Source: Tricharina praecox
Taxonomy: Eukaryota
DNA length: 64,000 nucleotides
Assembly: GCF_024521635.1 (NCBI RefSeq)
Contig: NW_026250403.1
Coordinates: forward strand, 434,001 to 498,000
Reading direction: 5' to 3'
Part shown: positions 1,652 through 60,397 of the stretch, piece after piece
Layout of the letters: the number at the start of each line of letters is the position of its first letter
Numbering within the stretch: the stretch's first letter is position 1
Notes under the pieces: model-generated
Databases searched by the model: none
What the model saw: the letters and a program-made list of their open reading frames with translations, nothing else
What the model was told of the DNA's origin: nothing
Program-made: the position numbers and the translations under genes

Positions 1652-1890
1652 ACATCAAGTATGGCGTGGATAATTACTGCTTTACAACAAGGAGTTTCTA
1701 CTTCGGGTTTCTACAAGTTACATAGTGGTTTTCTTTCCGTTTCTACTCTTTTCTTTTTGCTGCTGGGAAGCTTCAGAGCTTTTGATGTTTTTTTTTTAAC
1801 AATAGCGAGTGACATTTCATGATACATTGACTGGCCCCGTGTCGCATCCCCGTGTCGCGAGCCCCTTGTCAAAATCACTACTCTTCAACA

Positions 1891-3568
1891 ATGATGTCCA
1901 CAAAGCCACCACCACCGCTACCATCACCGTCAACGCCACCGCAGAAATCCCTCCTTTCCCGCTCCGCCGAAGGCGCCAAATTCCTAATCCTATTACAAGT
2001 CTCCTCGCGCCTCCTCACCTTCGGTGTGAACCAGCTCCTCCTACGCTACCTCTCCCCGTCGCTCCTAGGAATCTCGGTACAACTCGAGCTCCTCACCATC
2101 AGCATCCTCTACTTCTCTCGGGAGTCTCTAAGGAATGCGCTACAACGGCAGTCGGGCGGCTCGGGGAAGAGTGTACAGGCGGTGATCAATATCGCGCTCT
2201 TAACGCTGCCTCTGGGCGTGCTCTTCTCTGCGCTGCTAGGCAGTGGCTACATCCTACGTGCCGGCGAGGCCGGGAGCGTCCGCTACTGGCGCGAAAGCGT
2301 GCTGCTGTATGTCCTCGCTACACTGCTGGAGCTCGCCGCAGAACCGGCGTTTGCGGTTGCCCAGATGAATCTGTGGTATAAGCTCCGTGCGGCGGCGGAG
2401 AGTGCGGCGGCCGCGGCGAGGTGTGCTGTTACATGTGGTGTGACAATTTGGGGGGTGAATACGGGGAGGGAATTGGGCGCATTGCCGTTTGCTATGGGTC
2501 AATTGGCGTATGGAGGAGTGTTGCTGGCGGTTTACATGCAGCGCATGTGGAGGGAGGGGGTGACGGTGGGGTTGGAGAGGATTGATGATTCTGGGAAGAA
2601 GGAGGAGTAGGTTGTCTGCTTCCTAGTACACAGGATATCACTGACGATATTACAGAAATGACCGCGAGACCTACCACCTCCACCTCTTCTCCGCCCCCAT
2701 CTCCTCCCTAGCCGGCACGATGTGGCTTCAATGCGCCATCAAGCACGTTCTGACGCAAGGCGACAGCCTGCTGATAACGTATCTCGCCTCACTACCCGCA
2801 CAAGGCTCCTACGCGCTTGCCAGTAACTACGGCAGCCTGATAGCACGGATGCTATTCCAGCCGCTCGAGGAGACCAGCCGTACCCTCTTCAGCGGACTCC
2901 TCCCGTCGAGCCCTCCTCCCACGCCTAAAAACACGACCCAGGCGCTCCACGTCCTCAAGACGATATCAAAACTCTACCTCCTCCTCAGCCTGTTCTTCTG
3001 TGCCCTCGGCGCCCCATTCGCGCCAATCCTCCTCCGCCTCGTCGCCGGCCGGCGCTGGAGCGATTCCGCCGCAGGCGAAACCCTTACCGCATACTGCTAC
3101 TACATACCGCTCCTGGCTATCAACGGCGTCAGCGAAGCATTCGTGCAAGCCGTTGCGACGCCGAGCCAGTTGCACTCGCAATCACTCGCCATGATCGGGT
3201 TCTCGGTGTGCTTTGCCACCTCGGGCTACATCTTCGTGCACACACTCGCCCTGGGCGCGGAGGGACTGGTGTGGGCGAATGTCGCGAATATGCTCCTCAG
3301 AATCACGTGGAGCTCGAGGTTTATTGCGAGCTACTTTGGGCAGCGGGGTGTGCGCGTGGCGTGGACGGCGGTATTGCCGGGTGCGGCGGTGGTGGCTACC
3401 GCGGTCGCCGTGGGTGCTGCGGTGAGGGGCGCGGTGGTGGAGGAGTTTGGGCTACTGAGGCAAGGGGCTTGGGCGGTGGGTGCGGGAGTGGTGCTGCTGG
3501 GCGCGGTTGTGGGTGCTGAGAGACGGTTTTTGACCGAGTGTTGGGGGACGGTTAGAGCCGGGCGGTAG
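1891..3568 (+). CDS. RFT1: Rft1 oligosaccharide (Man5GlcNAc2-PP-dolichol) translocation protein
   Basis: GAKFLILLQVSSRLLTFGVNQ, SILYFSRESLR, KHVLTQGD, YALASNYGSLIARMLFQPLEE, YIPLLAINGVSEAF motifs; one intron 2607-2655. Confidence 0.93.
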
Positions 3569-19539: not shown

Positions 19540-21804
19540 ATGTCCGTGAAGTTCGCGCCGTTCGAGTCGGCGATCGACCTACCATTCTACTACTCCCTTG
19601 CATCGCATAAGATAGACCACGACAAGCTGGATGACTCACCACGCCGGGTGCTGGGACAATATGCTCCTTGGGAGAAACAACGGATGCAGATCCAGGGAGA
19701 TGCCCTTGAGGTGGATGAGTACGTTATCTACCTGATGCGAGGGGGAAAGGGGCCGAGGGGCGAGGAATGTGGTTTCTAACAGCTGTGCGCAGTGTTCCGA
19801 CGGGCATGTGTAGAGCGGAGGGCATGATCAAGAACTTCAATACCATCGAGGAGTTCAAGAAGGCCGACCGCCCAGCGATGCTGAAGAAGTCGGCGACTAC
19901 GGTATGGGATACGTCTACCCTTTGCACTCTCGCGGGGTTGCTGATGATGATGGGGTTAGCTCTGGGAGGCGATACTCGACGGTACAATCTATGAGTGTCC
20001 ATCGTTCCTCGCTTCGTTCCTCGTCTTGTCGTATGCGGACCTCAAGAAGTACAAGTTCCATCACCTATTCGCATTCCCGGCCTTCGTCTCGTCGCCGACA
20101 TGGTCCATGTCCGGTCCAATCTCGCGCTTCGACGCGCAACAGACTGGTATACTTGTCGAGGCGGTCACTACGTGGCGATACCGCAGCGACTCGCGACAGC
20201 GGGGATTCTTCCTGGTCAAGCGTGTGGCTGGAGAGTTCGTGATCGGTGCGTTGGGAGAGTTTGACCGGGGCTTCTTTGAAGATGTGGACCCGCTCGATCG
20301 TTTTGCGGCCTTTGTTGATCCGAGTGAATATGAGGATAACCCTGGGTGGCCCCTGAGGAACCTGTTGGTGCTTGTACGCAAGCGGTGGGGCTGGAGGGAA
20401 GTTAAGGTTCTCTGCTTCCGTGATTCCCACGCGGGACGATCTCAGCCACGAAGCTTGATTTTGGATTTGAAACTAGACGGTGATGACATCGAACAGTTGT
20501 CTCTAAGCGACGAGATCCCTAAGGTCGTCGGGTGGGAGAAGAATGAGGACAACCAGATCCGCCCTAGGATTGCAAATCTCAGCGCACAGATGGACCCAAA
20601 GATTCAAGCCGATATGAGCGTCGATCTCAACTTGAAGCTGATGAAGTGGAGGGTTGCGCCAAACCTCGACCTCAAGAAGATCAAGGACACCAAGTGTTTG
20701 CTCTTGGGTGCGGGTACACTGGGATCCTACGTCGCCCGTGTTCTGATGGGATGGGGAGTAAAGACGATCTCGTTCGTGGACTCCGGAACGGTGTCGTTTT
20801 CCAACCCGGTTCGACAACCTCTGTTTACCTTCCAAGACTGCATCGGTGGCAAAACAATGAAAGCTACAGCCGCTGCCCAAGCATTGAAAGATATCTATCC
20901 AGGGGTCAACGCCACTGGCTACGACATGACTGTGCCTATGGCTGCGCATCCTTTCAGCGAAGCACAGGAGCCCGTGGTGAAGCGCGATTACGAGAAGCTG
21001 AAGGAGCTCTTTACGACGCATGATGCCATCTTTCTACTGATGGATACTAGGGAGAGCAGATGGCTACCGACTGTCATAGGGAAGAGCATGGGAAAGATCG
21101 TTATGAATGCTGCACTGGGGTTCGACACCTATGTGGTGATGAGGCATGGTGTCAAGCCAGCCAAGTTTGAGGCTGCCGTAAAACAGAATGGGGAGAAGGT
21201 AGAGAAGGGCGTCGAGCTTGGTTGTTACTACTGCAACGATGTTGTGGTTCCTGGAGATGTCGGTTTTCCCCGGCCCCATAATCTTACCCTGGCAAATGCT
21301 GATTGACTGGGTGACAGAGCTTAACTGGAGCCACACTCGACCAGCAATGCACCGTTACTCGACCAGGTGTTGCGCCTCTTGCGAGTGCTTATTTGGCCGA
21401 ACTGCTTGTGTCGGTTGTGCAGCATCCTCTTGGGTTCGTAGTCCTTGCTGGAGCACCGCGATCGCTCGCTGACAAATTTTAGACCTGCCGCACCCGCACC
21501 AGCTAACACCCACGATGCCGACCGCGGTTCTCACCCTCTCGGGCACGTACCCCACACCCTGCGCGGAATACTCCATAGCTTCGGCAACATCAATGTCCGA
21601 GGCTTTGCCTACGATTGCTGCTCCGCATGCTCGGACAAGATCGTCAACGCTTACGAAGAGGGCGGATGGGATTTCGTCAAGCGTGCGTTGTGCGAGCGTG
21701 GCTACGTAGATGAAGTGAGCGGACTCGCCGAGGTTCAACGGCTCGCTGAGGCTGCCGAAGCTGCCGGCTGGGGAAGTGAGGACGATGATGAGAATTCCAT
21801 GTAG
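19540..21804 (+). CDS. ATG7: Autophagy E1-like activating enzyme Atg7
   Basis: [59 protein letters not shown], catalytic [12 protein letters not shown]; 4 coding introns plus a probable 5'-UTR intron (about 19440-19521). Confidence 0.97.
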
Positions 21805-22446: not shown

Positions 22447-22792
22447 TTGAAGGGCGACTAGCGTCCTGCATTATCTTGCCTCCATCTTTCTGGCTCTTCC
22501 CTTCCACCCCACACCTCCATCATCGATCACCGTCATAGAACCCAACTTTTGCTTGCTTGGTGAGTTAACTTTCCTTACCCGATCGTAGTTTTGCCACACC
22601 CACCCCACACCCCCAGTTTCAGTTCTCCGTGTATATCAATCCGTCGCTCGCCCCGCCTTACGTTTCTAACTTTGTTGTCGACATATCAGATCCTACATCA
22701 TCAACCACCACCACCATCACCACCACCGCCACCACCACCAAAACTACAAACAGCCACCGAAACTCCAAATCACCAAACTACAAATACACGAA

Positions 22793-23420
22793 ATGTTCCG
22801 TCGGATCATCACCGCCGCCGCCCCGGCCGCCCGTCGTGTCGCTGTCCTCCCGCGCGCCACCCCCGTCATCAATGCCCGTCGTGGCTACCACGAGAAAGAT
22901 ATGTCTTCCATTCCTGCGTAATCCTTCATGCAATTTCTCTGGTGCTGACGGCGCAGAACTGCTCGACCACTACTCGAACCCTCGCAACGTCGGCTCGATG
23001 AACAAGGGCGACCTTGACGTCGGCACCGGACTCGTCGGCGCTCCCGCCTGTGAGTATAATATTCCGCACATCCATTGCTCCTCCCCGCTGCTGCACCTGC
23101 TAACACATTTCTTTCCAGGTGGCGACGTGATGAAGCTACAGATCCGTGTCGACAAGACGACCAACACGATCTCGGACGTGAAATTCAAGACGTTCGGCTG
23201 CGGCTCGGCCATCGCCAGCTCGTCGTACCTGACGGAGCTGGTTCGCGGCATGTCCCTCGACGAGGCCGGAAAGATCAAGAACACAGAGATCGCCAAGGAA
23301 CTGTGCCTGCCCCCCGTAAAGCTCCACTGCTCAATGCTCGCTGAGGACGCTATCAAGAGCGCCATCCGCGATTACCAGAGCAAGTCGAAGCGCGCCCCGA
23401 CAATGGGCGAGAAGTTGTAA
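22793..23420 (+). CDS. ISU1: Mitochondrial Fe-S cluster scaffold protein IscU
   Basis: Arg-rich presequence, YHEK-VLDHYSNPRNVG, GAPACGDVMKLQI, FKTFGCGSAIASSS, LCLPPVKLHCSMLAEDAI; intron 1 non-canonical (22899-22959), intron 2 GT-AG; 5'-UTR intron about 22560-22689. Confidence 0.97.
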
Positions 23421-25207
23421 AGTGTTTCTTGTTTCTTGTCCCGTTGGTAAAGCAGCAAAAGTTTAGCCGTGGGGCGGTGGGATGGGGGATGAGGGGCCAG
23501 GCAGAGGCAATGAGGATGTTTTTTCAACGGCGTTCAACGTAACTGTTTGCTTTTCACCTTTTTTTTCTTATCCTTCTTTTATCGCTTCTTTCCTATTCGT
23601 TTCTCTCTGAGTCTCTTCTTCTTGCTTTCTTTCTGTGCTGGGCCGATACTGCGTGCGCGTTGGGGTGTTGGGAATGCATGGGCTTTACTTCCTTCCTCTT
23701 GATCTCTTGATCTCTTTTTCCGCGGCCAATCTGTCTCGTCCTACCTATATTCATACCCTGCTCTTTCCCACGCAAGGAGTGGGGTATGTATGGTAGGCTG
23801 GATACTCGATACCAGGTATCTGGTTGTGCTCATCATCATTCACCCTCCCTCGCTCGCTGGATAGGATAGGTAGCTGCTTTCTTCCTTTCGTTGTATATGT
23901 ATGTAAATACTTACTTACTTTACTTGGTTGACTTATCTACCTACCGTGTCCATGACTATCTCTTGTTCGGTATTCAGTGTTCACTAGTCCATGAGGAATG
24001 AGGAATGAGGGGGCTGTGTTCGTAACGATACAAACTTTTACGACCTGGAGAAAGGTGATGGACATGACCGCCGGAATATAGTACTACAGTGGGGGTCGGC
24101 CAATCGCGGAGAGCGGGGTTGGGGTTGCTGTCGCCAGCAGCCATGCATGGTAGTGAAATGGGGAGAAGAGTCCCGAATCCCGATCGATGGCGATGATGCT
24201 CGGAAGTGGAAGAGGCACTGGAAGAGGGTCGGCCAGCGAAGGTGATGAGGATGGGTTGGAGGTAGATATAGTAGGTAGTATAGTGGTTGAGTACAATACA
24301 TCTGGCCAGCGAAGATGATGGGGATGGGTTGAAGTATAGTAGGTACACACATCTTCGTGAGCAAACATGAGCTACCTAGTCGAGCTGCCCATCCAGTCCT
24401 TTGATTCGATGATGAAGATAGTTGGACCATCGTCTTGGGCGAACATGAGCTGAGCTACCTATTCGAGCCACATACCAGGGAGGTGCCCAGTCTTCGATTC
24501 GACGATTCGACTTCGAGCCAACTCTCGCTGGCTACCATACATAAACCTAGACTTCCACTCCCGGTGCTTTGGTACCTAGGTACGACTCGACGACCCTCTG
24601 CTCGTCGAAACCGGGACTGATCGATCACGAAGCGGGCACGGAGCGAGCAAGAGGACGGCCAGTGACGCCCACCGCCGAGCGAAGCGCATCGGCCTTACCC
24701 CCCTCCGTCTGCGTCTGCGTGACTGTGCGACTGCATCCCGCCGCCGTCAGCTGGCAGGACGTTTCTACTCTATATACATAGGAGTAGGTAGGTACTATAC
24801 ATCACTCGGGGAACGCCTTGCTTTTTTGGTTTCATGGCCCTACTGTACACGGTATTACACAGTCACTCGGCGAGAGTTGAGAGTTGAGAGTTGAGACATC
24901 AAGAGACGATTGTACATAGGTATATACATTGTATGTGAATGAGCGAGGCATCAGCCGTTGGCGAGGCGAAAGCGGGAGTACCCAGAGTACTGGGCTACAG
25001 TACCTTAGGTAAGACTTACCCAGGTACCTTATCCACCTACCTTACCCACCTACATACCTTGCCTACCTTGCTTACCAGCTCCACCGCGCCCACCCCACCA
25101 CCGTCATCGCGCTCGCGAGCTCAGTCGCAGCTCTCCACCGCCCACCGCGCCCTCCACCGCCCACCCTCACAACCACGACCCGCACCCTCACAACCACAAC
25201 CACAACC

Positions 25208-44584: not shown

Positions 44585-46494
44585 ATGGTCACCCAGGTTC
44601 GTCGAGCGATCTGCACGTTTCTCAACCCCACCACCACCCTGCTTCCCCACCATCCCAACTGTAACCCCGCTAACACTATCCGACAATGAAGATAAAAGTC
44701 TCGCCCGACCTCCCCACAGTCTCGGAGGTCATTTCGAAAGCACGAGCGGAGGATGCTGCCACGGCTCCAAACATTGTTCCGCTCGTCGCCTCGTTCCCCG
44801 CGGAATTTCTGAACCCGTCGAGCGCCTACCTGAAGCTCTCGGCCACGTGAGTCACATGCCCCACGGAGGGGAGGGAAGGGAAGGGATGTCGCGATTGACA
44901 GAGGGTGGATGTGATAGGAGCAAGACGAAGAACTCGTTCCTGTTCGAGAGCGCGTCGAGTAGGGAGACTATCGGACGATACAGTTTCCTCGGATGTGGTG
45001 CGTGCGGCTCGAATACCTACCCGGTCGGTGGTGGTGTCCCATTGAGTTCAGACCCATTGACGATTTTCCAGACCCGCGAAAAATCATCAAGACCGGTACT
45101 GGCCATGGCGAGGAAGTCGACCCCCTCACCGTGTTGCAGAAGGAACTCGCCAACTACCGACTGGCCAAATTCGCGGGTCCAAGTCTTCCGCCCATGACCG
45201 GTGGCGCTTTGGGCTACGTCGCCTACGACTGCGTCAAGTACTTCGAGCCGCGGACGAAGCGCGAGCTGAAGGACCCGCTGCAGATTCCCGAGTCGCTGTT
45301 TATGATCTGCGACACGATCGTGGCCTTCGATCACTTTTTCCAGACCATCAAGGTGATCACGCATATGCACATACGTGAAGAGGAGGATGCGACCGTGGAG
45401 ACGCTGCGAGCGGATTACGAGAAGGCCGAGACGGACATCGCCGAGATCATAAAGATCCTACAGTCGCCCGAGATTCCGCTACCGCACCAGCCACCAATCG
45501 TGAAAGGGCAGGAATATGTGTCGAACATTGGCCGTGAGGGATACGAGCGCCATGTCAACCGTCTGAAGGAGCACATCACCAAAGGAGACATCATCCAGGC
45601 GGTGCCCTCGCAGCGCTTCTCGAGGCCAACGAGCCTCCATCCGTTCAACATCTACCGCCACCTGAGAACCGTCAACCCCTCGCCGTACTTGTTCTACATC
45701 GACTGCGCAGACTTCCAGCTGGTGGGTGCCTCGCCCGAGCTCCTCGTCAAGGCCGAGAACGGCCGCATCATCACTCATCCGATTGCCGGGACCGTCAAGC
45801 GTGGCAAGACCAGCGAGGAGGACGATGCACTCGCGCAGGAGCTGCGGTCCTCGCTCAAGGACCGCGCCGAACACGTCATGCTCGTCGACCTGGCGCGCAA
45901 CGACATCAACCGTGTGTGCGACCCGCTCACGACCACCGTCGACAGACTCATGATCGTTGAGCGCTTTTCGCACGTTATGCATCTCGTCTCGCAGGTCTCG
46001 GGTGAGCTCCGGGAGGGAATGACTCGCTTCGATGCGTTCAGGAGCATCTTCCCGGCCGGAACCGTGAGCGGCGCCCCAAAGGTCAAGGCAATGGAGTTGA
46101 TTGCAGAGCTGGAGGGCGAGCGCCGGGGCGTCTATGCTGGCGCGGTCGGTTACTGGGGCTACGAGAGCGATAGCATGGACACTTGCATCGCGCTGCGCAC
46201 CATGACCGTCAAGGATGGAGTTGCGTATCTGCAAGCTGGCGAGTTCCACCCAACCCGAGTAACTACCCATATCCCCATTAACTAACATCAACAGGTGGTG
46301 GTATCGTCTTCGACTCGGATCCTTACGACGAGTGGATGGAGACCATGAACAAGCTGGCGGCAAATATCCACTGCATTGTCAGTGCCGAGGAGCGGTTTGG
46401 CGGCAGCGAAGCCAATGCCCAGGACCTCGCCATGGTGGGAGAGGAGCCGCAGCGCAACCTCAGCGCTGCCGTGCATCTGGGTGATGGGTCGTAG
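44585..46494 (+). CDS. TRP2: Anthranilate synthase component I
   Basis: SFLFES...[82 protein letters not shown]; last intron is GC-AG (46239-46294). Confidence 0.96.
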
Positions 46495-47085: not shown

Positions 47086-48138
47086 GGTTTGGTTGGTTTG
47101 GTTTGGCGCCGAGGGCGGGGGCCGAGGGCAGAGGCGATGAGAGGCGGGAGGTGGAGGAGGGGCGGGGAAGGGGCGTGGTGGTCGTGTTGCTTTCGCTGCC
47201 GAGAGTGAAGTCGACGGGAGTGTGTGCACTGTGGATCGGTTCAATGGTGGTTCAATGGTGGTTTCGTTGGTTGGCTGGGTTAACTAGGGCTGAGATTGAG
47301 GCTCTGCGGCGGGGTGGTCGGTGGTCACTGGTCGGTGGTTTCGTCTTCCTCTGACCTCTGGAGTAAAACTAGTGGGATACTTCCCAGCTAACGGCTCGAG
47401 CTAGCTTTTAGATCTTATCTAATCGCTCGGGGAAGCAGCCTCCGCAAACACAATACCCTGCCCAGTGCCGGGCACTCCTGTTCGGCCCTGCCGGAGCTCC
47501 CATATAGATGCACTGTAGGAACTCTACATGTATCGAGTCTCCAACCCGTGAGGCAAATACTTAAAGAGGAATTGGTGGCATGAGTTGTGGAAACGAAGAA
47601 TCGTTGGATAACTGTAATTCTATACGCCAATCAGATTGTTCACGTCTCTAGTCACTACCTATGATACCCCCGTTGACTTTTGACATCAGACTAATAAATA
47701 GGATCCGGCTGCACAAAACTTGGATTAAAGAAGCTGCAAAAAGTAGAAGTCCCGGCGTAGAAGAGCTTTTCTGTATTGTTACAGGCACTTCTGCAGACTG
47801 CGAGATAGAAGAGATGCAGGGCCCCTCCCACAGCTCACATGAAGGATGGTAATAGCGTTAACTTTGAGTACCCTTTGTCGGCAATGTGTTCTGAAGGTCA
47901 ATTGCGCCGAATTTGTAAATCTCCTGCTTTCTACCCTAGAGTAAATGATTTCTTTGATATTCCAAGTACAGGACGCCCATTTCGAACACTGTTGTATTTT
48001 CCCTATCATAATATATCACTCACCTAGCTTACCCGGCATGTCCTGCTATCGAAAAGTCGGGCAGTCCCAAGAATCCACATCCGACCACACCCCCGAATTC
48101 GACATCAATTCCACCCGGGCGTGCGCCCCAGCTCAACC

Positions 48139-49305
48139 ATGTCGACCAAAACGCTATCACCAGCTGCACACCTCCTCCGGAACTCCCGGTTGATGGCTAT
48201 GCCGGCACCGGTGCCTCCCCCACCGTCCCTCAGCATCACTACCCCGCCACCGGCGCCGTATCCCACGCTCCAAGCCATCACGACCCCGCGGTCCTCAGCC
48301 TTCCGCGGCGACTGGGGTCTCAAGCGTGGCCTCCCGCTCTCGACATCGGCAAAGTCGATCTACATGCGCTACGGAGCTCTCGACACGATTGAGCACATGA
48401 CGACGTTCGAGTCGGCGCACGACGATGTGTACACGCTCCGGAAATGGCAGGAGCTCGACGTTGCGCTGTACCCTCCCGTCTCCGAGCACGACTACGATAT
48501 GGACTCCCGCACCTTTGATCCCAGGAATACCGTCTTCGATGAGGTCAAGCCTGAGGCGTATAAGTGGCGGTACGAGGGCCCGTTCGTTAAGGGCATGGCT
48601 CCTAAGGATCTGCGCGAGTATATCAAGAAGGAGATTGTACCGCGAAAGGATGAGTTCTATGACTTTGTCGCCAAGCGACAGAGGGTCGATAAGATCAAGC
48701 GCAAGCACATGATGGCGGGTGAGGTGGTATCGCCGGCGCAGATCGAGAAGGAGGCAGAGGGATTGGAGATTGAGAAGGTGGACATCATGAAGATCCGTGC
48801 CGACCATCCGTACCTCGAGAGACTCGTCATCGACTTCTTAGACATTCCAATCAACAAGCCGCCGTCAACGCATCCTTCAGCCGGATTGCACTACACTCGA
48901 TCCAATGCCTACGCCTACAATGACCCCGAGCTCGGACCGCAACAGGCGAAGAAGGAGGTGCCCGGAAGACGGCTGGGATGGCAGCCTGCGACTGGACAAG
49001 TGGCTGGTATCGCTGGTGTTGTCGCGAAGGTCCAGAGAAATTCGATGCGAACCACACCGAGGAACGAAGACCGATTCCCGGTCCACAAGTACCGACCGGT
49101 CAAGGCGGGTATCGATTCGAAGGGAAAGATCCAACTGGCAGTGGACCAGGTTGTGCCGCCTTCGGAACTCTACGGCTCGACCGGGTTCAGGTTCCTCGCG
49201 AATAGGAGGATAGCGGCGCAGACGGATGCGGCGACTCGGCAGCGGAAGAATGACACGGATGCGATCATGGAGAGGCTGCTGAATCCCTCCATGGCGAGCC
49301 GTTAG
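48139..49305 (+). CDS. MRP51: Mitochondrial small-subunit ribosomal protein bS1m
   Basis: LLRNSRL, PTLQAITTPRSSAFRGDWGLKRGLP, LDTIEHMTTFESA, THPSAGLHY motifs; intronless. Confidence 0.85.
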   Translation: MSTKTLSPAAHLLRNSRLMAMPAPVPPPPSLSITTPPPAPYPTLQAITTPRSSAFRGDWGLKRGLPLSTSAKSIYMRYGALDTIEHMTTFESAHDDVYTLRKWQELDVALYPPVSEHDYDMDSRTFDPRNTVFDEVKPEAYKWRYEGPFVKGMAPKDLREYIKKEIVPRKDEFYDFVAKRQRVDKIKRKHMMAGEVVSPAQIEKEAEGLEIEKVDIMKIRADHPYLERLVIDFLDIPINKPPSTHPSAGLHYTRSNAYAYNDPELGPQQAKKEVPGRRLGWQPATGQVAGIAGVVAKVQRNSMRTTPRNEDRFPVHKYRPVKAGIDSKGKIQLAVDQVVPPSELYGSTGFRFLANRRIAAQTDAATRQRKNDTDAIMERLLNPSMASR

Positions 49306-56349: not shown

Positions 56350-59300
56350 ATGGCCAAAATAAGAGATATCCAACGCACAGCGGCCTTCGCGTGGGCCCCA
56401 GATACGCAACCCTTCATCGCGACAGGTACCCAGGCGGGTGCTGTCTCAGCAGACTTTTCGGACAACACCCAGCTGGAGCTATGGGATCTCGACTTGGGGG
56501 GTAATTCCCAGGCAGAGCTATCACCAGTAGCCGCAGTGAACACAGACTCGAAGTCGGTCGACCCCATGCCACCCCTGATGCTCAACGGAAACTATGAAGC
56601 TGCCTGGAGCTTGAAGAGCTAATCAGTATCTCACCGGTAGGTTCTACGATATCGCTTGGGGCCGGTTGGGCAACGATAAACCTAGGGGCATAATCGCCGG
56701 CGCGCTAGAGAACGGCTCCCTGGACCTCTGGAGTGCCGACGCTCTGCTCAACAACTCCGGAGACTCCTTGATTTCGCAAACGAAAAAGCATAGCGGCGCC
56801 ATCAAGTCGTTGCAATTCAATCCTTTCAAATCAGAACTCCTGGCAACGGCCGGCGAAAAGGGGGAGGTGAGCGACGCCGCTTGATATCCTTACACCTCCG
56901 AAGTTAACCATCTGCTGTAGCTCTACGTATGGGATCTCAACAACACCGACAACCCCTTTATGCTGGGCAATAAGGTGGCTAGAGCGGATGACTTCGACTG
57001 CCTAGACTGGAACAAGAAAGTTCCGCACATTCTGGTTACTGGCGGGAGTGGGGGATTTCTTACGGTGTGGGATGTTAAGCAAAAGAAGGAGTCGCTCACT
57101 CTCAACAACCTCAACCGCAAAGCTGTCAGCGCAGTGGCGTGGCACCCGGAACAGCAGACCAAGCTTATCACCGCCGTTCCAGATGACCAGAATCCCGTCA
57201 TCCTTCTCTGGGATTTGAGGAACTCGAATGCGCCTGAACGAGTGAGAAGCCTTTAGCGTAGTATCCCGATGCACCTGCTAATGATTTATACAGACTCTTA
57301 CTGGACACAGTGCTGGCGTTTTGTCACTCTCCTGGTGCGGACAGGACAGTGACTTGCTCCTATCGTCTGGAAAGGACAACCGGTCTATCTGCTGGAACCC
57401 GCAAACTGGTGAGATGTTGGGTGAATTCCCGGTGGTCACCAATTGGACATTCAAGACAACCTTCCATCCCCGCAACCCCACCTTCATCGCCACTGCATCC
57501 TACGACGGCAAAATTGCCATCCGGACATTACAGAACACCAACCCGCAAGTGGATACCGGCGCACCTGCCACTGCCGATGATGATGATTTCTTCAGTAGGG
57601 CCAGCAACGCGCAGACTTCGTCGTTTACCCTAGGACAGACTCCTAAGTGGTTGAAGCGTCCCGCCGGTGCGACTTTTGCCTTTGGCGGTAAGCTGGTTAG
57701 CTTTGCCAGCTCGGCGCCGCACCAGTCGACGGTTAAAATTTCCACTGTCGCGATCGACTCCGGCGTGAGTGATGCGACGGAGCGTTTCGAAAAGGCGATT
57801 CAGGAGGGAAATCTTGCTGCTATCTGTGACGAGAAGGCCCAAGATGCAAAGTCGGAGGAGGAGAAGTCGGAGTGGCAGGTGTTGAAGGCGTTGTTTGACG
57901 TCAATACCAAGGAGAAGTTAGTAGAACACCTTGGATTCAAGGCGGAAGACATATCGACGCCAAAACTGGAGAAGTCAGAAGGCGAGACCGAGGAGAAGGC
58001 AGAAGATGAAGATAAGGCGCATGCTCGGAAAGAGAGCAGACTGTCTTCTTTCTTTGCCGATGGAGATGACTCGGAGAACTTTTTGGCCGGCTTGTCCATC
58101 CAGTCGACTCAGACGGCCAGGACGAACAACCCGTTCCGGATATTCACTGGTGACGAAACCGACGCCGACAAGGCCATCACCAAGGCTGTAGTTTTGGGAG
58201 AATATGACAGGGCTGTCGATATGTGTCTGAAGGAAGACCGGATCTCGGATGCATTCATGCTTGCTATTTGCGGCGGGGACAAGTGCATTGACAAAGTTAA
58301 GGCTGCGTACTTCACCAAGAGGCACGATGGTCCTAACTACCTCCGTCTGCTGGCTTCCGTCGTTGGTAAGAACATGTGGGATATTGTTCACAACGCGGAC
58401 ATTGCGAACTGGAAGGAGGTTATTGTTGCACTCTGCACCCATGCCGACGAGAAGGAGTTCAATGATCTCTGTGAGGCGCTGGGTGACCGCCTGGAAGATG
58501 AATATCGGGCCAAGAACGAGGCTGAGCTCCGTGCGGCTGCTTCGCTCTGCTACCTGGCTGGATCGAAGCTCCACAAGCTCATCAACATCTGGATTAGTGA
58601 GTTTCAGGAAGGGGAGCGGGCTGGCTTACAAGAGGAATCCGAGGACTCCACGTTCTCGGTCCACGCGAAATCGTTGCAGAATTTCATTGAAAAGGTTACT
58701 GTTTTCCGGGAGGCTGTCAAGTTCGTCGACGAGGAGAAGTCCCTTCCGTCTGGGTGGAAGCTCAACTCACTTTACGAGAAATACTGCGAGTATGCCGACA
58801 TTGTCGCCTCTCACGGTCAGTTGAGCATCGCCGGGAAATACCTGGATCTTTTGCCTCAAGATTATCCTGCCGCTATGGTTGCAAGAAACCGCATTAAGCA
58901 GGCTACTACAACTAAAGCTACTGCCACCACCGCCACCACCACCGCCGCCACCACCACCACCACTACTGCTGCTGCTGCTGCTGCTGCTGCGGCTCGCAAG
59001 CAACCAGTACCTGCTACAACTGGATACAGACCGACACAACCCTTCATGTCCACACAGCAGTCGACCATGCAAAATGCATACGCTCCGCCAACTACAGCTC
59101 CTGCTGCAACGAACCAGTACATGCCACCCGCCTCAAACCCAGCCCAATCCAACATGTATGCCCCGGCCGGCCAGCAGTCCGCCTACAAGAGTCCTTACCA
59201 GCCCACCATAACTGCCCCCACTGGACCGTACACTCCTCAATACCCAGGGTCCACATTCACCCCAGCCGGAATGGCCCCTCCACCCAAGCAGTTCGCCCCG

Positions 59301-60397
59301 CCTCCCTCGGCTCCACCCAAGCAAGGAGCTACCGCCAACTGGAACGACACCCCCGAGGTCATCAGACCGGCTAGGAGAGCTGTCACACCTGCGGCACCCC
59401 CGGCGCCCAGCACGTCGCCGTTCCCGGGAGCTCCGCCAGTCTACACCCCGCCCCAGCCTGGCGCGCCATGGGGTGCTCCTCCTCCAAGGGCGACTCCTCC
59501 ACCACCCCCTAAGGGTGCTGCTCCTCCCAACCGAGTGCAATCTCCTGCCGGGCAGATTAGATCCGCATCACCTGCGCTCGCCGGCACCGGTTATCAAGCA
59601 GCACCACCCCACAATCCCTATGCCCCTCCTCCCGCACAGCCATCCACCTCTGGCCGATACACTCCCCAGCCGGTTGCCCAATCCCCATTAGCAGGTCCTT
59701 CCGGTGGACGTGCGGGCCCGCCCCAGGGTAACGTCATTCCAGGACTACCTGCATCCGGCCCACGGTATGCTCCCCCACCCACAGCATTTGGACAGCCCTC
59801 TACGACTTTGCCGTATGGATCGCAGCCGCCGCCACCGATGGCGCCCCAGTACGCTCCGCAAGTGCCGCAGCTACCCCCACAGAGTCAGTACGGACCTCCC
59901 CCGGGCGCCCAGGGACCCCCGCCTCCTCGGTCTGGCCCTCCACCTGCCGCGGCACCTCCGCCAAAGCCCGCAACGCCTACCCCTCAACCGATCAAGCATC
60001 GTAAGCTCTCCCCTACTTCCCGTAGCCATGTACCGTACTCACAATGCCAATAGCCAAGGGCGATCGTTCACATATCCCGCCCCAGCACATGCCGATCTTC
60101 GAGCTATTGTCTGCGGACATGGAACGAGTTAAGGCACGTGCGCCTCCGGATTTCTCTCGCCAGGTCACGGATACCGAAAAGCGGTTGAACATTCTGTTTG
60201 ACCATCTCAATAACGAGGATCTGCTGTCAGCGGAGACTCTGGAGAGTATGGCCACCCTTGCCAAGGCTCTTGCTGCTAAAGACTACAACACCGCGCGTAA
60301 CATCCAGGTGAATTTGTTGACCAACAAGACCGCTGAGTGCACACAGTGGATGACGGGAGTCAAGAGGTTGATCGACATGAGTCCTGTGGCGGAGTAG
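56350..60397 (+). CDS. SEC31: COPII outer coat protein Sec31
   Basis: N-terminal WD40 ([30 protein letters not shown]), [22 protein letters not shown]1 helical region, Pro-rich region, C-terminal [15 protein letters not shown]...WMTGVKRLI; 4 introns. Confidence 0.97.

Follow-up and report, generated by a model that had tools for sequence, protein, structure and literature searches.

The window analysed here, a 64,000-nucleotide stretch of Tricharina praecox DNA, contains on its + strand the mitochondrial Fe-S scaffold gene ISU1/IscU, which reading of the sequence resolves into three coding exons between an ATG at 22793 and a TAA stop at 23418-23420. Excision of 22899-22959 together with an ordinary intron at 23050-23118 leaves an open frame of 165 amino acids reading ...RRGYHEKVLDHYSNPRNVG... 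This product is letter-for-letter identical to P0243, a T. praecox entry of 165 aa with PF01592 that is publicly named 'NifU-like N terminal domain-containing protein'; the public annotation therefore already uses the 22898/22960 junction, and the novelty of the intron is lower than the preliminary description of the locus had assumed. A 165-aa relative, P0244, is 97% identical and likewise reads YHEKVLDHY. Identity as an IscU/ISU1 scaffold follows from the PF01592 (NifU_N) domain on P0243 and from exon 3, which shares 85-91% identity with ISU1/IscU proteins of named fungi. Contigs from four of ten listed sequencing runs (X2, X3, X4 and X6) were compared with the window, yielding the following features:

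22510..22559, + strand: upstream exon of the 5' UTR (at least this part), from a piece of the X2 contig corresponding to positions 1-50 of the record
22560..22689, + strand: 5' UTR intron of 130 nt, GTGAGT...TCTAAC...CAG, from the spacing of the X2 contig and the termini in the sequence
22690..22792, + strand: second part of the 5' UTR, with a CAC/CCA-rich simple repeat at 22690-22750; contigs cover 22751 onward
22793..22898, + strand: ISU1 coding exon 1, from a presequence-like N-terminus to YHEK and the G of a Val codon (sequence, contigs, public protein)
22899..22959, + strand: AT-AC intron of 61 nt, phase 1, ATATGT...GCTGAC...CAGAAC (contig joints in X2, X3 and X4; identity to P0243)
22899..22904, + strand: 5' splice site ATATGT, the U2-type GTATGT with A at +1 (sequence; six nearby introns)
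22944..22949, + strand: branch site GCTGAC, with branch A 22948, 11 nt before C22959, the 3' end (sequence)
22954..22956, + strand: CAG passed over as 3' splice site (no 22898->22957 joint in the contigs of X2, X3, X4 and X6)
22958..22959, + strand: AC 3' terminus (sequence and contigs)
22960..23049, + strand: coding exon 2, (..V)LDHYSNPRNVG...GAPA(C) (sequence and contigs)
23050..23118, + strand: intron 2 of 69 nt, GTGAGT...GCTAAC...CAG, in frame and stop-free (joint 23049->23119 in X2, X3, X4 and X6)
23119..23420, + strand: coding exon 3 through the stop TAA at 23418-23420 (sequence and contigs; PF01592 precomputed for the whole of P0243)
23421..23566, + strand: 3' UTR (at least); the contigs of X3 and X4 end at 23566 and 23455, and that of X2 continues

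The neighbouring gene ATG7 supplies both a taxonomic anchor and a set of local introns for comparison:

19540-21801: ATG7 (autophagy E1-like enzyme), its translation matching the public T. praecox protein P0122
19719-19792, 19902-19959, 21259-21317 and 21434-21482: short GT-AG introns of ATG7, from the protein mapped on the window, the last boundary having been moved one base by eye to GT..AG

A 448-aa exon of ATG7 is 100% identical to the Tricharina praecox protein, and the next named matches are to Pyronema, Ascodesmis, Rhizina and Tuber, all of them Pezizomycetes. Judged on these identities, the host is an ascomycete and a Pezizomycete, either T. praecox itself or a strain nearly identical to it. 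Elsewhere in the window, long exons at 1831-3568, 44963-46285, 48028-49305 and 57285-60053 match, in turn, Rft1, anthranilate synthase component I, Mrp51 and a WD40 / Sec16-like protein; the Rft1 family is annotated as a lipid-linked oligosaccharide flippase, and Mrp51 is a mitochondrial ribosomal protein.

The joint 22898->22960 is present in contigs of X2, X3 and X4, which belong to studies P2, P3 and P4, respectively. It is recorded as 'skips 61, AT..AC' and has in each run the same qualifiers (both=0, hence a position free of ambiguity, a shorter side of 90 letters and 0 other letters). The GT..AG joint 23049->23119 occurs likewise in the contigs of these three runs and in X6, whose exon 1 contig reaches no further than 22865 and which confirms intron 2 only, being silent on the AT-AC joint. 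The X2 contig also lacks the 130-nt segment 22560-22689, the length of which was obtained from the contig spacing (record position 50, then 61 letters, then window position 22751, across a genomic gap of 191 nt; 191 - 61 = 130); the row for this joint was dropped, the adjacent simple repeat at 22690-22750 being masked. X6 is the only one of the four runs on record as RNA, the status of X2 being given as 'DNA?' and that of X3 and X4 as 'RNA?'. We infer that the X2, X3 and X4 contigs are transcript assemblies, because they lack introns, because those of X3 and X4 end in UTRs, and because their depths are unlike those of neighbouring contigs. In these three presumed RNA runs, the element, which has AT at its start and AC at its end, is excised exactly. 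The coordinates that the preliminary description had given for the start codon (22793), the end of exon 1 (G22898), the 61-nt intron and the start of exon 2 (T22960) are all correct, and its proposal of an AT-AC intron, made from the letters of the window, is borne out by spliced contigs.

Several observations on the transcribed region stand apart from the AT-AC intron. The CAC/CCA-rich simple repeat at 22690-22750 lies in the 5' UTR shortly before the ISU1 start codon. Over the CT-rich 3' UTR at 23512-23687, X3 reaches a word depth of about 4,500, as against 783 for ISU1; this signal consists of 60-nt contigs on the minus strand and could stem either from k-mers of low complexity or from a short or antisense RNA that is abundant. 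P0242, a 140-aa ORF called on a close strain's Logan contig, reads through intron 2 and differs by one residue from the corresponding read-through of the window. Retention of intron 2 would add 23 residues beside a cluster-ligand cysteine.

The alternative outcomes at the first coding intron differ sharply in their consequences. Excision of 22899-22956, ending at the upstream AG, gives the in-frame sequence YHEKELLDHY, with the extra residue that had been predicted for an AT-AG event, and retention of 22899-22959 leads to the frameshift that had also been anticipated, and to a stop TAA at 22919-22921 after ...YHEKDMSSIPA (42 codons). These outcomes are the basis for a regulatory reading, put forward in the preliminary description. 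On this reading the intron would be inefficient by design, and the level of ISU1 would be set, for instance in response to iron, by how often the intron is retained or the upstream AG is used. A non-canonical intron right behind the presequence is a plausible control point, with retention producing a premature stop and the AG variant staying in frame, but we find no support for such control and regard it as improbable. The AT-AC-joined form, with word depths of 22, 783 and 1086 in X2, X3 and X4, is the only one assembled in the transcript-like runs, so that splicing of the intron looks constitutive. Neither the intron interior (22899-22959) nor a joint to 22957 is present in the contigs of X2, X3, X4 and X6, a type of assembly that hides minor isoforms. 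No special RNA fold of the intron region was detected against 200 shuffles either (z 0.41), 133 of the 200 folding as well as the native sequence.

Enumeration of all GT/GC...AG and AT...AC/AG pairs around the site revealed seven canonical in-frame pairs. The earlier assertion that no in-frame GT-AG solution exists thus holds for the two donors on which it was based, 22903 and 22918, both of which are out of phase, and fails as a general statement, although every one of the seven pairs damages the protein. Joining GT 22878, GT 22881 or GC 22884 to AG 22956 removes the conserved GYHEK, and the remaining pairs delete part of exon 2; no contig of X2, X3, X4 or X6 uses any of them.

Comparison with local introns indicates which spliceosome is likely to process the element. 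The donors of six nearby introns of ISU1 and ATG7 read GTGAGT (twice), GTACGT, GTATGG, GTCGGT and GTTCGT, and by eye the ATATGT of the AT-AC intron is a major-type 5' splice site among them except at +1. The two canonical ISU1 introns combine GTGAGT donors with CTAAC branch sites, and the four ATG7 introns carry CTAAC, GCTGAT, GCTGAT and GCTGAC at 10-15 nt from their 3' ends (hand count), a range that includes the GCTGAC found here at 11 nt. On these signals, the AT-AC intron is a local-consensus intron in all but its first and last base, in agreement with the earlier assignment of U2-type rather than U12-type features.

U12-type introns have a short distance between branch site and 3' end. 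The 11 nt observed here, together with the AT-AC termini and phase 1, would suit a U12-type intron handled by a residual minor spliceosome, an explanation that we nonetheless consider very improbable. The sole branch motif, CTGAC, does not resemble that of U12-type introns and is the local major-type motif, GCTGAC being shared with adjacent GT-AG introns. The donor is ATATGT (ATATGTCT), not the /ATATCCTT consensus as quoted in PMC5029451. An Rfam scan of the 64-kb window gave 0 matches, snRNAs included, a weak point against a minor spliceosome that says little for the whole genome. Larue and Roy 2023 (PMC10639083) report that neither Ascomycota nor Basidiomycota yield convincing minor introns and that these are fully absent from Dikarya, and Bartschat and Samuelsson 2010 (PMC2846911) describe U12 splicing as absent in Ascomycota and Pezizomycotina, the two papers together leaving Ascomycota without convincing minor snRNAs as well. 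This agrees with what had been asserted of ascomycetes in general; the host is placed among them by the identity of its ATG7 exon. From the ascomycete host, these papers and the local signals, we infer that the ISU1 AT-AC intron uses the major spliceosome.

The distribution of the intron in other fungi was read from proteins. Searches with exon 3 provided 240 listed homologs (120 of 4,166 matches and 120 of 8,000 matches), which were classified at the junction as follows, all counts being among the 240 matches listed:

Intact YHxKV(L/I)DHY: 109
First Met inside exon 2: 74
First residues MKLQI, in exon 3: 16
Reading beyond exon 1, with YHEK-D in 15/15: 15
Bacterial-type N-terminus: 9
Entering exon 2 from upstream, with L for V: 6
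Otherwise odd: 11

The faulty models are informative about the intron termini. Because the Val codon is split as G|TN, a read-through D (GAY) implies A as the first intron base and T or C as the second. Read-through of a GT intron would instead yield G (GGT), and YHEK-G was found in 0 of the 240 matches listed. At the other end, L replaces V in 9/9 of the models among the matches listed that read into exon 2, three of which are also YHEK-D read-throughs. L (CTN or TTR) implies a last intron base of C or T; V would result from an intron ending in AG. The same pattern holds when the window itself is read through (YHEKDMS...) or read in (...GAELLDHY). The residue after D is M in six of the 15 read-through models, K in four, I in three and N in two, residues that fit ATATG or ATAAG starts, or else predicted donors at an internal GT. 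Three models (P0012, P0096 and P0120) translate the whole intron in frame, with implied lengths of 51, 69 and 66 nt, and in each an A-D or L-T codon pair, 11-12 nt before the end, is compatible with a branch motif of the CTNAC type. The residues preceding LDHY or IDHY in the relatives' read-ins (RAL, KAL, LAL, SAL, FPL, SVL, RIL and DAL) imply no skipped CAG, a further point against regulation through the upstream AG. Another group of models (P0026, P0073, P0085, P0090, P0094 and P0251) shows ..HHY or ..NHY in place of DHY on re-entry into exon 2; here the predictors seem to have substituted as acceptor a chance AG that the Leu and Asp codons create.

Named species with disrupted models span six classes of Pezizomycotina. 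They comprise Aspergillus brasiliensis (two models), A. ellipticus, A. melleus and A. terreus; Coccidioides immitis, Blastomyces percursus, B. gilchristii and Emmonsia crescens (two models); Arthroderma sp., Polytolypa and Myotisia; and Drechslerella dactyloides (Orbiliomycetes), Xylographa (Lecanoromycetes), Trichoglossum (Geoglossomycetes), Candelina (Candelariomycetes) and Maublancomyces (Pezizomycetes). By hand count, 34 of the 74 models starting in exon 2 are named genome annotations, distributed over Eurotiomycetes, Lecanoromycetes, Orbiliomycetes, Pezizomycetes and Geoglossomycetes, plus one Leotiomycete and one Dothideomycete. Intact and read-through models stand side by side in A. melleus and C. 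immitis, and intact and truncated ones in Histoplasma capsulatum; given this coexistence, the intact models of these three species must use the odd junction. No disrupted model from a named Sordariomycete is among the 240 matches listed, and in that class the intron may be canonical or absent. Taken together, these patterns make it probable that the same A...C phase-1 intron is common to Pezizomycotina, on a sample that is skewed towards species with failed gene prediction, that consists of translations of faulty models rather than DNA, and in which the 109 intact models fit AT-AC, GT-AG or absence of an intron alike.

The same comparison bears on the possibility that the termini are assembly errors, the true intron being GT-AG or the gene containing an indel. 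The genomic letters at the intron termini do come from the window assembly alone, and X1, the DNA run with the best share (1.00), may be the source of the window, but an error would have to occur twice and exactly at both terminal bases, the exon letters agree with three independent contigs with 0 mismatches, and at least ten other named fungi, in independent assemblies, carry the same A-start/C-end signature. We hold an assembly artefact to be the least probable of the explanations weighed here, and the preliminary argument against a sequencing error gains from independent annotations of other fungi.

Orthologous genomic loci were also sought in metagenomes, prokaryote genomes and viral contigs, without success. 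With exon 3, 80 metagenome loci were recovered, of which only four look eukaryotic: L001-L003 are contigs of about 1 kb with unbroken, mRNA-like ORFs, and L004 lacks an intron at this site. The other loci are 63-74% identical and look bacterial by identity. A Pezizomycotina-specific peptide pattern matched four loci in prokaryote genomes, judged by record titles only to be chance matches, and two on viral contigs, which on translation are not IscU.

The reading that we favour, with a probability of 0.87 to about 0.9, is that 22899-22959 is a genuine spliceosomal AT-AC intron of U2 type ('type II') in ISU1/IscU, and otherwise an ordinary short fungal intron. [quoted passage not shown] In the ISU1 intron, AAG|AUAUGU would be recognised by U1 and then by U6 despite the A at +1, and GCUGAC would pair with U2, A22948 serving as the branch nucleotide. 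For the second step, the terminal bases of the intron would have to pair as A-C in place of the normal G-G. The AC at 22958-22959 would then be chosen, and the CAG three bases upstream passed over, because an A at +1 would need an A-C pair. The product is the canonical ...YHEKVLDHY... protein, and an A...C intron shared at the same phase-1 site would account for the truncated or garbled public ISU1 models in Pezizomycotina.

A more ambitious extension, that the intron is at least as old as the Pezizomycotina ancestor and represents a U12-type fossil taken over by the major spliceosome upon loss of the minor one in Dikarya, appears unlikely; of its parts, only the Pezizomycotina-wide conservation has indirect support, from the protein models. 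Under such a history, the AT-AC ends, the ATAT start, phase 1 and the short branch spacing would have been retained for hundreds of millions of years, the ends persisting because a change at a single end would block the second step.

Fungal literature on an AT-AC or U12-type intron in Isu1/IscU was not found in searches conducted in part at the level of titles and abstracts. A match for an AT-AC and IscU intron concerned human pseudoexons rather than fungi, and PMC3091305, which matched AT-AC with Pezizomycotina/Neurospora, contains the polyketide-synthase domain string KS-AT-ACP; several further titles matched in this way deal with polyketide-synthase or secondary-metabolite genes. Discussion of the ISU1 AT-AC junction was not found in that literature, the junction itself being already public.

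The consequences are, in the first place, for annotation: among the 240 matches listed, the 74 models starting in exon 2 lack the mitochondrial presequence and a further 15 contain translated intron, and a rule permitting AT-AC at this one position would mend the model of an essential gene in many fungal genomes. For splicing research, the intron offers a natural and apparently constitutive case for the major spliceosome in which a CAG is skipped and an AC three bases on is used; with relatives among tractable fungi (Aspergillus) involved, it provides a handy test of first-last base pairing in 3' splice site choice. If the conservation holds in DNA, a doubly non-canonical intron persists across fungal classes that have no minor spliceosome, and a U12 origin becomes a testable question.

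Set against known systems, the ISU1 intron shares with U12-type AT-AC introns the terminal dinucleotides and the short branch-to-3' distance; it differs from them in having neither an ATATCC donor nor a U12-type branch motif, and in belonging to a host group from which that machinery is reported missing.

The closest counterparts are the type II AT-AC introns of animals. U2-type AT-AC introns numbered 24 among 610,067 introns of five species in the data quoted from Sheth et al. 2006 (PMC1557818), and those of human SCN4A and SCN5A, described in parts of the same paper, resemble the ISU1 intron in being very rare and in combining AT-AC with an otherwise major-type 5' splice site. Their borders are kept from human to pufferfish (PMC1557818, same extract), and those of the ISU1 intron would, on the evidence of protein models, be kept over several fungal classes. 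The animal consensus quoted in PMC5029451 is /ATAAGT as against /ATATGT in ISU1, and the relatives of ISU1 seem to have both, as suggested by their DK and DM read-throughs. Further differences from the animal introns are the ISU1 host lineage, which is reported to lack a minor spliceosome, the length of 61 nt, and a use of the major spliceosome that is presumed rather than biochemically shown.

In Saccharomyces cerevisiae, the AT-AC intron nested in the RPL30 intron and the engineered AT-AC intron parallel the ISU1 case, in that an ascomycete without a minor spliceosome accommodates A-C in place of G-G (PMC5029451 and PMC11585973, each in part). The RPL30-nested intron, the sole endogenous AT-AC case reported in S. 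cerevisiae by the portion of PMC5029451 cited here, is a minor by-product, accounting for about 1-2% of the RPL30 mRNAs, with a 5' splice site like neither consensus. In contrast, the ISU1 intron has a near-consensus donor, looks constitutively spliced and is the sole route to a functional protein.

Evidence from filamentous fungi is more general. Some xylanase genes were once hypothesised to have U2-type AT-AC introns (PMC1557818, in a brief mention), and Frey and Pucker regard AT-AC as a minor non-canonical combination in fungi. In excerpts of the respective reports, SnowyOwl models of A. niger, P. chrysosporium and T. lanuginosus put AT-AC at 0.03% of the introns predicted, Trichoderma longibrachiatum RNA-seq has it at 69 of 14,305 junctions, and an AT-AC case is given among 28 non-canonical genes of Fusarium graminearum. 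The ascomycete RNA-seq surveys thus agree with the ISU1 case in placing the AT-AC class at a low level in filamentous ascomycetes; the portions of their main texts that were available give counts, without gene names or conservation, and their supplements might list ISU1. Within this class, the ISU1 intron is a clean, apparently constitutive and probably old member, residing in an essential gene.
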